Assembly (NCBI RefSeq): GCF_003334785.1
Contig: NZ_QOWV01000003.1
Reading direction: 5' to 3' (one strand)
Length of the DNA stretch: 64,000 nt
DNA from: Escherichia coli
GTDB taxonomy: Bacteria > Pseudomonadota > Gammaproteobacteria > Enterobacterales > Enterobacteriaceae
Shown piece after piece: positions 17,896-57,865 of this stretch. The notes beneath the pieces are model-generated. The model did no database searches and had not been told where the DNA came from. It was given only the letters and a program-made list of their open reading frames with translations. A program made the translations under genes and the position numbers. Position 1 is the first letter of the stretch; each line of letters starts with the position of its first letter.

Positions 17896-17929
17896 AAATC
17901 AATAGATTATTTTTGGCATGATTCTTGTA
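17896..17929 (+). promoter_or_regulatory. putative sigma54 promoter with IHF-like site upstream of pspG
   Basis: IHF-like aatcaatagattat (17897-17910) followed by TGGCATGATTCTTGTA (17914-17929; GG-N10-GT, like the pspA promoter) about 35 bp before the pspG ATG. Confidence 0.5.
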
Positions 17930-32593: not shown

Positions 32594-33058
32594 ATGGAAA
32601 AGAAATTACCCCGCATTAAAGCGCTGCTAACCCCCGGCGAAGTGGCGAAACGCAGCGGTGTGGCGGTATCGGCGCTGCATTTCTATGAAAGTAAAGGGTT
32701 GATTACCAGTATCCGTAACAGCGGCAATCAGCGGCGATATAAACGTGATGTGTTGCGATATGTTGCAATTATCAAAATTGCTCAGCGTATTGGCATTCCG
32801 CTGGCGACCATTGGTGAAGCGTTTGGCGTGTTGCCCGAAGGGCATACGTTAAGTGCGAAAGAGTGGAAACAGCTTTCGTCCCAATGGCGAGAAGAGTTGG
32901 ATCGGCGCATTCATACCTTAGTGGCGCTGCGTGACGAACTGGACGGATGTATTGGTTGTGGCTGCCTTTCGCGCAGTGATTGCCCGTTGCGTAACCCGGG
33001 CGACCGCTTAGGAGAAGAAGGTACCGGCGCACGCTTGCTGGAAGATGAACAAAACTAA
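32594..33058 (+). CDS. soxR: MerR-family redox-sensing regulator with 2Fe-2S cluster
   Basis: 154-aa [39 protein letters not shown]...; [12 protein letters not shown] cluster-binding motif. Confidence 0.95.
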
Positions 33059-33191
33059 AGCGCCACAAGGGCGCTTTAGTTTGTTTTCCGGTCTTTGTCT
33101 TTCTCTCTATCCCGCTGGTACACAGGAGGGTTTCCCCCGACGTCAACACACCTCATTCGAGCACGTGGTGGAGGTTCCGGTTGGTGTTGAT
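33052..33191 (-). ncRNA. ryjA: possible small RNA RyjA (placement approximate)
   Basis: Recalled from K-12 annotation as a ~140-nt sRNA antisense to the soxR 3' end; the only sequence support is the bidirectional terminator hairpin at 33056-33086. Confidence 0.3.
33056..33086. terminator. bidirectional terminator hairpin at the soxR 3' end
   Basis: ctaaagcgccacaagggcgctttagtttgtttt: stem ctaaagcgcc/ggcgctttag; T-rich tail on plus, TTTTGTT on minus. Confidence 0.7.
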
Positions 33192-52005: not shown

Positions 52006-54153
52006 TTACGCCAGTGCCGCTTCGCGCAGGCGAGTTTTCAACTTGTTGTACTCGTCAATCACGTACTGCTCGGCGGCGCGCTGATCGGCGATCGGCTCGA
52101 CGCGAACGGCGCAGTATTTGTACTCCGGCGTTTTCGTAATCGGGCTTAAGTTTTCAGTAACCAGCTCGTTACAGGCACCAATCCACCACTGGTAGGTCAT
52201 GTAAATCGCCCCTTTGTTCGGACGATCGCTGACCTGCGCACGGGTGATAATTTTGCCTTTACGCGAGTGCACCCAAACCAATGCCTCATCTTCAATACCC
52301 AGACGTTTGGCGTCTTCGGTATTGATTTGTGCGTAGCCAGGTTCATCAGCCAGCGCCGCCAGTGCCGCACAGTTACCGGTCATCGAACGGCAAGAGTAGT
52401 GACCAACTTCACGCACCGTTGACAGTACCATCGGGTACTCGTCGGTGAGTTTGTCGATTGGCGCTACCCAGTCGCAGGTGAAGAACTGCGCCAGACCGTT
52501 CGGGGTATCAAACTTCTCTTTAAACAGATAAGAAGTCCCCTGATCGGCATCTGAAGTATCGCGGCAAGGCCACTGAATGAAGCCCAGTTCGCCCATTTTC
52601 TCGTAAGTCGCACCGTAGAAATCCGGGCACAGATGACGCAACTCATCCCAGATCTCCTGGGTGTTGTTGTAGTGCATCGGATAACCCATACGGGTGGCGA
52701 TTTCACTGATGATTTGCCAGTCCGTTTTCAGATCCCATTTCGGTTCAACCGCCTTGAAGAAACGCTGGAAGCCACGGTCAGCCGCAGTAAACACGCCTTC
52801 ATGCTCGCCCCACGACGTTGACGGTAAAATAACATCCGCCGCCGACGCGGTTTTGGTCATAAAGATGTCCTGAACGATAACCAGTTCCAGATCTTCAAAG
52901 GCTTTACGTACTGCCGACAGCTCCGCGTCAGTTTGTAGCGGATCTTCGCCCATAATGTACGCGGCACGCACTTCGCCATGCGCTGCGCGGTGCGGCAGCT
53001 CGCTGATGCGATAGCCGGTATGCGCTGGCAGGCTTTCCACGCCCCAGGCTTTGGCGAATTTCTCGCGGTTAGCCGGATCTTTCACGTACTGGTATCCCGG
53101 ATACGTATCCGGCAGCGCGCCCATATCGCAGGCACCCTGAACGTTGTTCTGACCACGAACCGGGTTAACACCCGCATGCGGCTTACCGAGGTTACCGGTC
53201 AGCATCGCGAGGCTGGTCAGAGAACGCACGGTTTCCACGCCCTGGTAGAACTGGGTTACACCCATGCCCCACAGGATGGCGGCGCTTTTCGCCTGGGCAT
53301 ACATCCGTGCCGCCTGACGAATCTCACTGGCGCTGACGCCGGTGATATCTTCAACCGACTCCGGCGTGTAGCCTTCAACGATTTTACGATACTCTTCAAA
53401 GCCTTCTGTACGTGAAGCGACGAACGCTTTGTCGTACAGATTTTCTTCAATAATGACATGGCCCATCGCATTCAACAGCGCGATGTTCGAGCCGTTTTTC
53501 AGTGCAATGTGCATGTCAGCAATGCGCGCGGTTTCAATTTTGCGCGGATCGCAGACGATAATTTTCGCCCCGTTACGTTTAGCGTTAATTACGTGATTCG
53601 CCACGATTGGGTGGGAATCCGCCGGGTTGTACCCGAAAACGAACACTAAATCGGTATTATCAATTTCGTTAATAGCATTGCTCATTGCGCCATTACCGAC
53701 CGATTGGTGCAGACCTGCAACCGATGGGCCGTGTCAGACACGAGCGCAGCAGTCAACGTTATTGGTACCAATAACGGCGCGCGCAAATTTTTGCATTACA
53801 TAGTTGGTTTCGTTACCCGTACCACGCGAGGAGCCGGTCGTCTGGATGGCATCCGGACCGTACTTCTCTTTGATGGCGCTCAGGCGCTCGGCAACGTAAT
53901 TCAGTGCCTCATCCCAGGAAACAGGTTCGAGTTTGCCGCCACGCTGGCGACGGATCATGGGGGTTTTCAGGCGCGGGGTCAGGATCTGGGTATCGTTAAT
54001 GAAGTCCCAGCCATAATAACCCTTCAGACACAGGGTACCCTGGTTGGTTTTCCCCTGCGCTGCCTCCGCCCGGACGATTTTGCCGTTATCGACGACCAGG
54101 TTGATTTTGCAACCTGATGCGCAATAGGGGCAAACCGTGACGACTTTTTTCAT
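52006..54153 (-). CDS. fdhF: formate dehydrogenase H, selenocysteine-containing (UGA recoded as Sec at codon 140)
   Basis: ORF track splits it into 53734-54153 (MKKVVTVCPYCASGCKINLV...CCARV) and 52006-53685, in the same frame and separated only by one TGA (reverse complement of 53734-53736); reading through gives 715 aa. Confidence 0.93.
53690..53733 (-). other. SECIS stem-loop directing selenocysteine insertion at the fdhF UGA
   Basis: Minus-strand sequence directly 3' of the UGA reads cacggcccatcggttgcaggtctgcaccaatcggtcggtaatgg, matching the fdhF SECIS hairpin as I remember it (GGUUGCAGGUCUGCACC apical stem-loop). Confidence 0.8.
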
Positions 54154-54202
54154 CGGTCTCGCTCCAGTTAATCAAATCACGCATACGCGCTCTCGACTAC
54201 AG

Positions 54203-54350
54203 TATGCATCTTTTATGCCACATTTTATGTGGGGTCATTCCCTGATATTACGGGCACTATTTATTCAAAACTCTGACGAAAAACAGGCTGTCGTCAGTTT
54301 TGACGTGACGAAACGAAATACCGCGTGACAGCCATCACGCGGCAGACATT
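54203..54350 (-). promoter_or_regulatory. sigma54 promoter and FhlA-type upstream activating sequence of fdhF
   Basis: Minus-strand TGGCATAAAAGATGCATA (reverse complement of 54203-54220; GG-N10-GC) about 50 bp upstream of the fdhF ATG; repeated tgtcgtcag / tgacgtgacg / cgtgacag motifs at 54290-54340. Confidence 0.65.
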
Positions 54351-55817
54351 TTATTTTTTCTCGACGACGGGACCTGCCTGATACCCGCCGCCCAGCGATT
54401 TCATCAACTGAATGCTTTGGATCACCCGGCGGCTGTCCAGCATCAGTAATGACATCTCTTCGGCAAGCACTGGCAACCGGGCTTCGGTGGCCTGTAAGCG
54501 GCTGGTTAAGCCGCGCTGATAGGCGGCCTCGGCAGCGCGCTGGGTAAAGCGCGTGGCTTCCACGCGTTCAGCCTGCATTTCTCGCTCGTCGTTGAGCGTT
54601 TGCAGACGCGTGCCGTTGACGGCAACGTCACGCACCGCGTTCAGTACTGACTGGTTGTAACGTTCAATCATCATGTTGCTGGCGGCGCGCGTGCCTTCGA
54701 GATTGGCATTCAACCGTCCACCGTCAAACAGCGGCAATTTCAGACCCGGGATGAAGTTGAACTGGCGACTGGTTTTTTTGAATAAGGTATGCAGATGGAT
54801 GGAGTCCAGACCGAAAAACGCTTTGATATCAAAGCTCGGATAGAACAACGCCCGCGCGGAATCCACCTGATCTAATGACGCCTGAACATACCAGCGCATG
54901 GCTTGCAGATCCGGGCGTCTGGCGAGCAACTCATAAGAGAGTGTCGCCGGAATGCCGGTCTGGACTTGCGGTAATGCCACCGGTCTGATCTCCGGCATAT
55001 CGCTGGCTCCCGCGCCAATCAATGCACGCAGAGATTCTCGCGTTTCGGTGATTTGCCCTTTGACGGCAACAATTTGTTTATCGACCGCCAGAATCTGTGC
55101 CCGCGCGCCGTGGAAAGGCACTTGCGCTTCCAGACCGTGCGCCACTTTACTCTGGTGCGCTTTCACCGCGTAATCAATCACATCGTGAGTTTGTTCTAAC
55201 AGATCGAGCATCTGATAGCTGGCCTGCATACTGTAATAAAGCTGCGCTACGCCCGTGGCCAGCGATAGCTCTACTGCTGCGGTTTCTGCCAGCGCGGCAT
55301 TATGCGCGCCAATGGCGGCGGCAACCGCTGAGCGATGCACACCCCACAAATCAAGATCCAGTCCGGCAAACAAACCTACTGTGGCTTCCGTATAGTACGG
55401 CCCGTCCATACCCAGTGCTGGCGCATCCATTGAATAAGGGCTTAAAAAGCCGTTCGCCGAGACACGTTGGCGGTTGAGCATCCCTAACGCTGCGACCTGT
55501 AATTGTGAACCGGCATCTAACAAATCGGCCTGGGACTGCGCTTTTTCTTCCCGCAGTTTCGCTTCGGCGAGGGTGTGTGAACCACTTAGCGTCCGTTGGA
55601 TCAGCGCATCCAGCTGCGGGTCATTGAGTTGTTTCCACCACTGCGCCTGCGGCCAGCCGGAGCTGGCAAGATGAATATCGTCGGCCAGTTTGATTTGTTC
55701 CGGTTTGAGCTGTTGATGAGGTGCAGAATCCTTACGTACCAGGGCACAGCCGGAAATCAGCGTCGTGCTGCCGAGAATGCTGCACAACAGCAGACGTGAA
55801 AGTTGACGATTGATCAT
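54351..55817 (-). CDS. mdtP: outer membrane factor lipoprotein of a tripartite efflux pump
   Basis: 488-aa ORF with lipobox (LISGCA) MINRQLSRLLLCSILGSTTLISGC...; 4-nt overlap with mdtO. Confidence 0.9.
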   Translation of the reverse strand: MINRQLSRLLLCSILGSTTLISGCALVRKDSAPHQQLKPEQIKLADDIHLASSGWPQAQWWKQLNDPQLDALIQRTLSGSHTLAEAKLREEKAQSQADLLDAGSQLQVAALGMLNRQRVSANGFLSPYSMDAPALGMDGPYYTEATVGLFAGLDLDLWGVHRSAVAAAIGAHNAALAETAAVELSLATGVAQLYYSMQASYQMLDLLEQTHDVIDYAVKAHQSKVAHGLEAQVPFHGARAQILAVDKQIVAVKGQITETRESLRALIGAGASDMPEIRPVALPQVQTGIPATLSYELLARRPDLQAMRWYVQASLDQVDSARALFYPSFDIKAFFGLDSIHLHTLFKKTSRQFNFIPGLKLPLFDGGRLNANLEGTRAASNMMIERYNQSVLNAVRDVAVNGTRLQTLNDEREMQAERVEATRFTQRAAEAAYQRGLTSRLQATEARLPVLAEEMSLLMLDSRRVIQSIQLMKSLGGGYQAGPVVEKK

Positions 55818-57865
55818 TGCGTGGCTCCTTGTGCCTGTTCCGTGGCGGGCGTTAATGCCGGGGCTGTCCAGTCTGGCAAGCGGGCGAAAAGCTGGCAGAC
55901 GTGTTGCTCCTGTTTTAATAAGGTGGGCAGGATGGCCTGAGAGGCGGGTGTCTCTTCAAGCGTTATTTGAGGAGAACGGCTGAGTGCGGTTGCCAGACCG
56001 GCAGCGTATTTCTCCAGGGCGTCGGCAAACTGACCTGCTCTGTCCGGCTGTAGTGCGTTATCCAGCGCCTGCGCCGAGTTCCAGGTGGCATCCCAGGCGT
56101 GAAGAAGATCGCGGCCCTGACGAATAACCGTTTGCGAACGTTCAATCAGTAATGCGCGTTCTTCGCTGTCCAGTTGACGCTCCAGCGCCACGCGTTGGCA
56201 CATCTCTTCACAGGCATTAAACGCCGCATGCAGACCGATACGAATTTGCAGATAAGTGCGCAGAGCCGTGACTTCCTGCTGGCGTGGGATCCGCATTACT
56301 TTACTTAACATACCCAGCGTGCCAGCCAGTTTTTGCGGCAGTGTGCGCGCTTCACTTTCAGGCCAGACAAAGGTGTAAATCACCGCGGACACCACGGTAC
56401 CAATGATGATACCCAGGGCGCGATCGCGAATTTCCACCAGGTCGTACACTGGGCCAAAAACGTTTTCGAGCGTGGCGAGCGCGAAGGTGACCACCATCTG
56501 TGTGCCGATATAAGAAGAGCGTTCAGAGCTGGTGGCAATCCATGCGCCCAACAGGAAAATCGGTGCCAGCACAAACAGCAATTCGACAATATTGTCCAGC
56601 CAGGGCATGACCAGTAGCGTGAATAACAGCGCCAGAATCGCGCCGCAAAAGGCCCCGCCAAAACGCAGCACCATCTTCTGGTACGACGAACCGACATTTG
56701 GGTTAGCGACGATCACGCATGTCAGCATACAGGTGTGAATGCCTTCCCAGTCCACGCCGCTGTAAAAGGTGTAACAGATCAAACAGGCGAGCAGCGTTTT
56801 TACCGCGTAGCGCATATAGTCTGGATTGGTAAAAGCATCGGCGGCCATTGATGGCGGTTTGGCTGCGGGCGTTGGCGGCGTATTCGGGTCCATCTGACCC
56901 AGTTGTAACAACGTCTGGCAGATATTCTCCAGGTTACATTCCCGTGCCGCCATCGCTTCACTTTCACTGATCCGCCAGTCGCTTTGCCAGCACTGACCTT
57001 CAGCAACGGCATGCTGCAGCTTGTTGATTTCTGAAGCTAATTTTTGTCGGAATTCAATAATTGCCTGAGAATCAGCAAAAGAGGTGGGATCGTAGCGATT
57101 CAGCGTCGAGTAAATGTAGGTTACCGTTGCCACGCAGCTTTGCCACCATGCGTTTTGAGTTCGCCAGTTGGCATCGTCCGCGAGGCAAAAGACATTGAGT
57201 TTTTGTAGCGCCAGCGCCTCTCTTTCAATCCGCGTTTCGGGTAGCGGTGCGAGGCTGTCTGTCAGGTGACTAATGGCATCATCAAGCCGATCATTAAGCG
57301 CCTGATGCATTTGCGAAATGGCACGACTGGGAAACCACAGCACGCCGATTAACGTCATCAGCAAGGTTGGATAGAGGCCAACAACGATACACCACAGCGT
57401 TAAGCGCACGACCACTTCCGGATAGTCGAGCATGGCGGGGAAGGTTTGCCCGTAAATAGCGACAATGGCGACGGCGAAAAAGACCAGCCCCAAGCGATGG
57501 GTGCGCATCAAAAACATGCAGCCCATCAGGATCGGTCCGGCGATGATCAATCGGATCAACGGTTCGCCGTATGACCATTTGTAGATCAAAAACAGGCTGC
57601 CGATCTCCAGCACCGTGGCAACCACAAACAAGATCGCGACAAATTTGGTGTAAAACGCGTTCGACTGAATACCGTAAAACAGCACTGCCAGCGATAACGC
57701 CACAAAAGGGATCTCAAAGGTCATCGAGATCAGAATCACCAGCAGGCAGCCTACCCAGAGTTGCACGGTCTGCGGCACGCGACCTGGTCGCCGCTCGCTT
57801 AACTCTTCATGAAAGAACGCCAGCAGCCTGACCACCGGTAATGGCAGGGAGTTGAGCGCGCTCAT
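55814..57865 (-). CDS. mdtO: inner membrane efflux component (FUSC/aromatic acid exporter-like)
   Basis: 683-aa polytopic ORF MSALNSLPLPVVRLLAFFHEELSERRPG...; start overlaps mdtN stop by 1 nt. Confidence 0.9.
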   Translation of the reverse strand: MSALNSLPLPVVRLLAFFHEELSERRPGRVPQTVQLWVGCLLVILISMTFEIPFVALSLAVLFYGIQSNAFYTKFVAILFVVATVLEIGSLFLIYKWSYGEPLIRLIIAGPILMGCMFLMRTHRLGLVFFAVAIVAIYGQTFPAMLDYPEVVVRLTLWCIVVGLYPTLLMTLIGVLWFPSRAISQMHQALNDRLDDAISHLTDSLAPLPETRIEREALALQKLNVFCLADDANWRTQNAWWQSCVATVTYIYSTLNRYDPTSFADSQAIIEFRQKLASEINKLQHAVAEGQCWQSDWRISESEAMAARECNLENICQTLLQLGQMDPNTPPTPAAKPPSMAADAFTNPDYMRYAVKTLLACLICYTFYSGVDWEGIHTCMLTCVIVANPNVGSSYQKMVLRFGGAFCGAILALLFTLLVMPWLDNIVELLFVLAPIFLLGAWIATSSERSSYIGTQMVVTFALATLENVFGPVYDLVEIRDRALGIIIGTVVSAVIYTFVWPESEARTLPQKLAGTLGMLSKVMRIPRQQEVTALRTYLQIRIGLHAAFNACEEMCQRVALERQLDSEERALLIERSQTVIRQGRDLLHAWDATWNSAQALDNALQPDRAGQFADALEKYAAGLATALSRSPQITLEETPASQAILPTLLKQEQHVCQLFARLPDWTAPALTPATEQAQGATQ

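Follow-up and report, generated by a model that had tools for sequence, protein, structure and literature searches.

Introduction

The fdhF promoter of Escherichia coli K-12, together with a formate-responsive upstream activating sequence (UAS), was reportedly described by Birkmann, Sawers and Bock in 1987 and by Birkmann and Bock in 1989. The hycA-hypA region is assigned to the same activator, FhlA, in the literature. At that locus two divergent promoters share one UAS region, its spacers have a very high AT content, and IHF dependence has been reported for hyc/hyp. In its general mechanism the fdhF promoter also resembles glnAp2 with its activator NtrC: a closed complex forms at a −24/−12 element, the activator site lies about 100 bp upstream, and looping is followed by ATP-driven promoter opening. 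The two systems differ in signal, which is phosphorylation for NtrC and the binding of formate to FhlA's N-terminal domain for fdhF (PMC11291172). According to reviews, control of fdhF by FhlA has been known for ~35 years, with FhlA sensing formate and binding upstream of both fdhF and hyc (PMC11841067, PMC11291172).

Orthologous sigma-54 elements precede fdhF in Salmonella Typhimurium (STM4285) and Proteus mirabilis. The Salmonella element, TGGCATAAAACATGCATA, was ChIP-chip positive for sigma-54, and expression of the gene was 29-fold sigma-54-dependent (PMC3844500). In P. mirabilis, activity of an fdhF reporter was lower in both fhlA and rpoN mutants (PMC7658346).

Here we analysed a 64-kb stretch of DNA (64,000 nucleotides, hereafter the window), for which an earlier sequence-only reading had proposed a complete enhancer-dependent promoter upstream of fdhF. 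That proposal is supported: the −24/−12 element is identical to a mapped sigma-54 site, OS41, and the upstream repeat cluster is conserved. We have very little doubt that the locus represents the promoter-enhancer region native to E. coli fdhF, comprising a sigma-54 promoter and an FhlA-bound upstream enhancer. This is a textbook formate-inducible promoter that is already well known, and it brings no new biology. Its interest is that a complete enhancer-dependent promoter can be recognized from raw sequence, which makes it a clean positive control. Feature coordinates are collected in Table 1.

Table 1. Features of the fdhF promoter region and flanking genes (window coordinates; positions with a minus sign are relative to the predicted transcription start).
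Feature	Sequence	Position	Strand	Basis and remarks
Sigma-54 −24/−12 promoter element	GTGGCATAAAAGATGCA	54205..54221	−	Sequence, RpoN matrix, OS41 identity, conservation
Predicted transcription start		54194	−	Spacing from −12 (12 nt after the −12 C); leader of 41 nt
UAS core	TTTCGTCACGTCAAAACTGACGA	54291..54313	−	Centred about −104; sequence, cross-genus conservation, fixed spacing
Proximal enhancer element	TTTCGTCAG	54273..54281	−	−87 to −79; conservation; second TTTCGWC half-site
Probable distal enhancer element	CTGTCACG	54324..54331	−	−137 to −130; also lies within the mdtP terminator hairpin (3' arm)
Conserved spacer block	CCCGTAATATCAGG	54241..54254	−	Conservation profiles across Enterobacteriaceae genera
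Intrinsic-terminator-like mdtP hairpin, then T-rich tail	TTTCGTTTCG (tail)	54319..54344	−	Terminator scan, RNA fold
fdhF CDS (formate dehydrogenase H)		52006..54153	−	ORF read through to 52006, RefSeq annotation
mdtP		54351..55817	−	Upstream of fdhF, co-directional

Results and Discussion

Locus identity

The window is E. coli chromosome. A segment of 321 bp (54100–54420), in which RefSeq places the last part of mdtP and the beginning of fdhF, matched K-12 MG1655 and numerous further strains at 100% identity; of 5426 complete E. coli genomes, 5420 contained it. The fdhF promoter examined here is therefore the same locus as that of K-12, with no difference of substance; the strain departs from MG1655 only elsewhere, with identity of 99.95–99.97% over 50 kb. 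One such difference lies in a REP-type array between gltP and yjcO (50956–51220, with Rfam naRNA4 matches at 51035–51105 and 51148–51218), which is ~340 bp shorter than in MG1655, or roughly three 113-bp units. The shorter array indicates that the window comes from a close relative of MG1655 and not from MG1655 itself. Elsewhere in the window, the Hfq-binding small RNA sraL (ryjA) adjoins soxR (33051–33191, minus strand; Rfam 153 bits).

Identification of the downstream gene as fdhF follows from three features. Its product of 715 residues has an in-frame UGA (selenocysteine) codon at position 140 (53736–53734, minus strand), this codon is directly followed by an Rfam SECIS_2 match (87 bits, 53741–53687, minus strand), and the RefSeq annotation agrees. 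The ATG lies at 54153 and is preceded by a GGAG at 54165–54162, 8 nt upstream. On the minus strand, a 197-bp spacer separates mdtP from fdhF.

The sigma-54 element

Within this spacer, and pointing toward fdhF, the minus strand reads TGGCATAAAAGATGCA, or TGGCAT-AAAAG-ATGCA, at 54220–54205. Its GG (54219–54218) and GC (54207–54206) give the GG-N10-GC spacing. The sequence-only reading had described a well-spaced TGGCAT-N5-ATGCA upstream of the gene, and this was borne out. The 17-mer GTGGCATAAAAGATGCA is, letter for letter, site OS41 of the MG1655 sigma-54 ChIP-seq study, where it is assigned to fdhF with a fold-above-threshold of 41 and transcription predicted to begin 41 bp ahead of the gene (PMC4591121). 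The start predicted here agrees with the rule used in that study, by which transcription begins 19 bp downstream of the motif centre (distance to fdhF = 41). OS41 is further flagged as an experimentally confirmed promoter in EcoCyc (PMC4591121), and the fdhF-mdtP spacer was also recovered by genomic SELEX (gSELEX) with reconstituted RpoN holoenzyme (PMC8743547). For the Salmonella and Proteus promoters, one base in the spacer between −24 and −12 differs from the window, and the upstream neighbour varies.

A sigma-54 matrix scan, suggested as a check alongside the sequence-only reading, relied on the 186-promoter RpoN matrix given in PMC7658346 and covered about 128,000 window positions. The fdhF element scored 13.5 bits and ranked third. 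Among the high-ranking matches is the known pspG sigma-54 promoter, TGGCATGATTCTTGTA (17914–17929, plus strand; ChIP-seq site OS40), at rank 7. The top score, 15.0 bits, belongs to TGGCAGACGTGTTGCT (55893–55908, plus strand), which lies antisense inside mdtO, a gene that is unnamed in the main text and tables of the MG1655 sigma-54 ChIP-seq paper (PMC4591121). The loose pattern TGGCA-N7-TGCA, taken alone, was uninformative: three matches were seen in the window versus 1.0 expected, and 9 of 100 shuffled sequences reached three.

These scores bear on whether the GG-N10-GC could be a chance or non-productive site, in which case a sigma-70 promoter, or read-through that began at mdtNOP, would account for fdhF transcription. 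Matches of equal or higher score do occur inside genes, at 45500–45515 as well as within mdtO, and the loose pattern is not enriched. Against this stand the in vivo occupancy by sigma-54 at OS41, its listing as a confirmed promoter, and retention of the element 51–84 nt from the ATG in 77 of 80 species. For a sigma-70 promoter, a consensus scan of 53900–54700 returned no promoter-like site, and fdhF is rpoN-dependent in both Salmonella (PMC3844500) and Proteus (PMC7658346). Read-through is made conceivable by mdtP, which is co-directional and only 197 bp upstream, but mdtP is followed by a strong terminator-like hairpin. We regard this set of explanations as extremely improbable.

The upstream repeat cluster

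Upstream of the sigma-54 element, all three plus-strand motifs listed in the sequence-only reading are exactly present: TGTCGTCAG at 54289–54297, TGACGTGACG at 54301–54310 and CGTGACAG at 54324–54331, corresponding to −95 to −137 relative to the predicted start. Their upstream location stood, and they lie 69–111 bp from the −24 GG, slightly closer than the distance of about 80–130 bp given for them. A fourth copy, TTTCGTCAG (54281–54273, minus strand), was absent from the earlier list.

The UAS core contains a tandem CGTCA CGTCA and a palindrome, CGTCA-AAAC-TGACG (54305–54292). There are two copies of the half-site TTTCG(T/A)C, at 54313–54307 and 54281–54275, 32 bp apart. Taken together the elements run from −79 to −137, in keeping with the repeated or dyad sites expected of an enhancer about 70–150 bp upstream of a −24/−12 element. 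Across the 64 kb, four CGTCA/TGACG pentamers within 40 bp are found only here, making this the densest such cluster, and six YGTCR/YGACR within 65 bp form a unique maximum at the same place. Birkmann and Bock are said to have placed the fdhF UAS, in 1989, roughly 100–120 bp upstream of the start, in agreement with a core centred at about −104.

Conservation and helical phasing

One genome per species was scanned, yielding 80 Enterobacteriaceae loci with FdhF N-termini 89–100% identical to the query. The best RpoN-matrix match in the 77 species that keep the −24/−12 element was TGGCAT-N6-TGCA or a one-base variant of it. When sequences were anchored on this element, the upstream region gave the consensus TTCGaCACGTCAAat.TGACGA..gcCTGttTTTCGTCAG.gTTTTG as one strongly conserved block. 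The core, CG(A/T)CACGTCA-N4-TGACGA, was present in all 77 element-bearing species. Its distance to TGGCA was bimodal among the 78 sequences (the window plus 77 species), being 86/87 bp in 70 and 77/78 bp in 8. The two classes are one helical turn apart, which is consistent with a face-of-helix constraint. Proximal GTCA was found at its offset in 72 of the 78 sequences, and distal GTCA[CT] 12–32 bp upstream of the core in 65.

The core had been anchored by a regular expression, and an unbiased MAFFT alignment of 25 genera was therefore added. Invariant columns fell only in the distal G(TC) (54329–54327), the UAS core and the −24/−12 element. In the core (54309–54291) they read G.CA.G.CA....TG.CGA, while at −24 TGG.A was invariant, and the full TGGCA and the −12 TGCAT were invariant or nearly so. 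The proximal T.G.CA (54279–54274) was nearly invariant; in the distal element the G was invariant and the TC nearly so. A cross-species footprint of this kind sharpens the picture of the promoter slightly, and suggests a tripartite enhancer composed of distal GTCAC, core CG(A/T)CACGTCA-N4-TGACGA and proximal TTTCGTCAG. Given this cross-species conservation, neither the −24/−12 element nor the upstream repeats can be put down to chance.

Gene neighbourhood varies around this footprint. mdtP precedes fdhF at just 13 of the 80 loci, and the remaining 67 have other neighbours, which argues that the conservation belongs to fdhF and not to the adjoining gene.

Three loci have no intact −24/−12 element: Entomohabitans teleogrylli (L076), Leclercia sp. 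29361 (L080) and Enterobacter sp. BIGb0383 (L083). They retain remnants of the fdhF upstream region, be it a portion of the enhancer, the spacer or a −24 element that is truncated. From these remnants they look like decayed or rearranged promoters rather than counter-examples.

Overlap with the mdtP terminator

The hairpin that directly follows the mdtP stop codon has 11 pairs and a folding energy of −20.1 kcal/mol (z = −3.3 versus shuffles). Its 3' arm includes the distal motif, cgtgacag. Where mdtP lies upstream, the hairpin has been maintained; in Kluyvera and Salmonella arizonae its stem shows compensatory changes that retain GTCA, and in Kluyvera cryocrescens it reads GCCGCATGA...TCATGCGGC, again with GTCA. 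In species that lack mdtP at this position, GTCAC is still there and no hairpin is found. The distal element is best read as a part of the enhancer that probably doubles as a terminator stem in Escherichia and some relatives.

This overlap raises the question of whether the upstream repeats are simply the mdtP terminator plus fortuitous short repeats, with no enhancer present. Such a reading would account for a distal motif that sits within a hairpin's 3' arm ahead of a T-rich tail, and for the weak scores obtained with the published FhlA matrix and consensus (see below). However, the hairpin overlaps the distal motif only, and the core and proximal elements (54313–54273) lie downstream of it. 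No part of the spacer is better conserved than these two elements in species without mdtP upstream (67 of 80 loci), the distal GTCA persists even without hairpin context, and spacing to the promoter varies only by one helical turn. We give the absence of an enhancer practically no weight. On the preferred reading of the repeats as an enhancer, its distal element sits within the terminator stem in mdtP-linked lineages, which might tie transcription or termination of mdtNOP to FhlA occupancy, and CCCGTAATATCAGG could bind a regulator so far unassigned to fdhF; we consider this two-part reading unlikely. If true, terminator coupling and a regulator site at CCCGTAATATCAGG would each add only a little to a promoter already studied in depth.

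FhlA specificity and the formate regulon

Upstream regions of E. coli hycA-hypA, hydN and hyfA were fetched and compared qualitatively with fdhF, a comparison which for hyc/hyp had been proposed together with the sequence-only reading. Like fdhF, hycA-hypA combines −24/−12 elements with an upstream cluster of (C/T)GTC(A/G) and TTTCG(T/A)C sites. Clusters of the (C/T)GTC(A/G) pentamer were found 60–110 bp upstream of their own −24 elements at hycA, hypA, hydN and hyfA, with TGTCGatgaTGTCGaaaTGACACGTCGACAcggCGACG as an example from hyc-hyp. The sequence GACACGTC appears both at hyc-hyp and in the consensus that other genera give for fdhF, and hyc-hyp likewise has two copies of the half-site TTTCG(T/A)C. 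The fdhF enhancer differs from that of hycA-hypA in serving a single promoter, with no convincing IHF site seen in the fdhF spacer. It differs from glnAp2 in having no TGCACC-N5-GGTGCA, the NtrC-type site.

Published FhlA consensus sequences predict the fdhF enhancer poorly. With the 14-nt FhlA matrix (PMC7658346), the best local site was the palindrome CGTCAAAACTGACG, which scored 8.1 bits and ranked only 96 in the window; the matrix was rejected as a discriminator. The idealized consensus CATTTCGTACGAAATG, from Leonhartsberger et al. 2000 as quoted in PMC4987338, had at least 7 mismatches in 16 wherever it was placed in the fdhF and hyc-hyp regions. It was likewise rejected as a test of membership, and only its half-site TTTCGWC was kept. 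Since neither published motif discriminates by score, specificity for FhlA rests on published experiments and on the architecture shared across the regulon. The view of the upstream repeats as an FhlA-type enhancer site is nonetheless upheld by their conservation, their helical phasing, their likeness to other sites of the regulon and the published control of fdhF by FhlA.

These features suggest the following sequence of events. Sigma-54 RNA polymerase would occupy the −24/−12 element (54221–54205) as a closed complex, unable to start alone. FhlA, encoded elsewhere in the hyp-fhlA operon, would bind the cluster of (C/T)GTC(A/G) and TTTCG(T/A)C sites at about −80 to −137 (54273–54331). Formate-bound FhlA would oligomerize and loop the roughly 85-bp spacer to reach the polymerase, and its hydrolysis of ATP would open the promoter, with transcription starting near 54194. 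Sigma-54 occupancy, dependence on sigma-54 and FhlA, and formate sensing are taken here from the literature. Our own analysis shows that the sequence equals the mapped site, that the cluster is unique in the window, that both elements and their phasing are conserved, and that the region resembles others of the FhlA regulon; the repeats contacted by FhlA and the precise point at which transcription starts are inferred.

The conserved spacer block and other regulators

Between the UAS and the −24 element lies a second conserved stretch, CCCGTAATATCAGG, followed in most genera by ATACCCACAAT beside TGGCAT. Its presence is one reason to ask whether the region serves other regulators, either because the enhancer acts mainly for a different activator, for instance HyfR, a paralogue of FhlA, or because the region integrates IHF, ModE or NarL through the spacer block. 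The hyfA upstream region carries a related palindrome, CGACA-N4-TGTCG, and ModE and NarL are described in secondary literature as affecting both the fhl regulon and fdhF. On the other hand, FhlA is consistently named as the fdhF activator in the literature, and a role for IHF would depend on a core match in this block that is 8/9 in E. coli and weaker in other genera (judged by eye, unscored). We did not adopt an IHF site in the fdhF spacer on account of this poor retention, and consider another main activator or an integrating spacer block very unlikely. FhlA remains the preferred activator of the fdhF enhancer.
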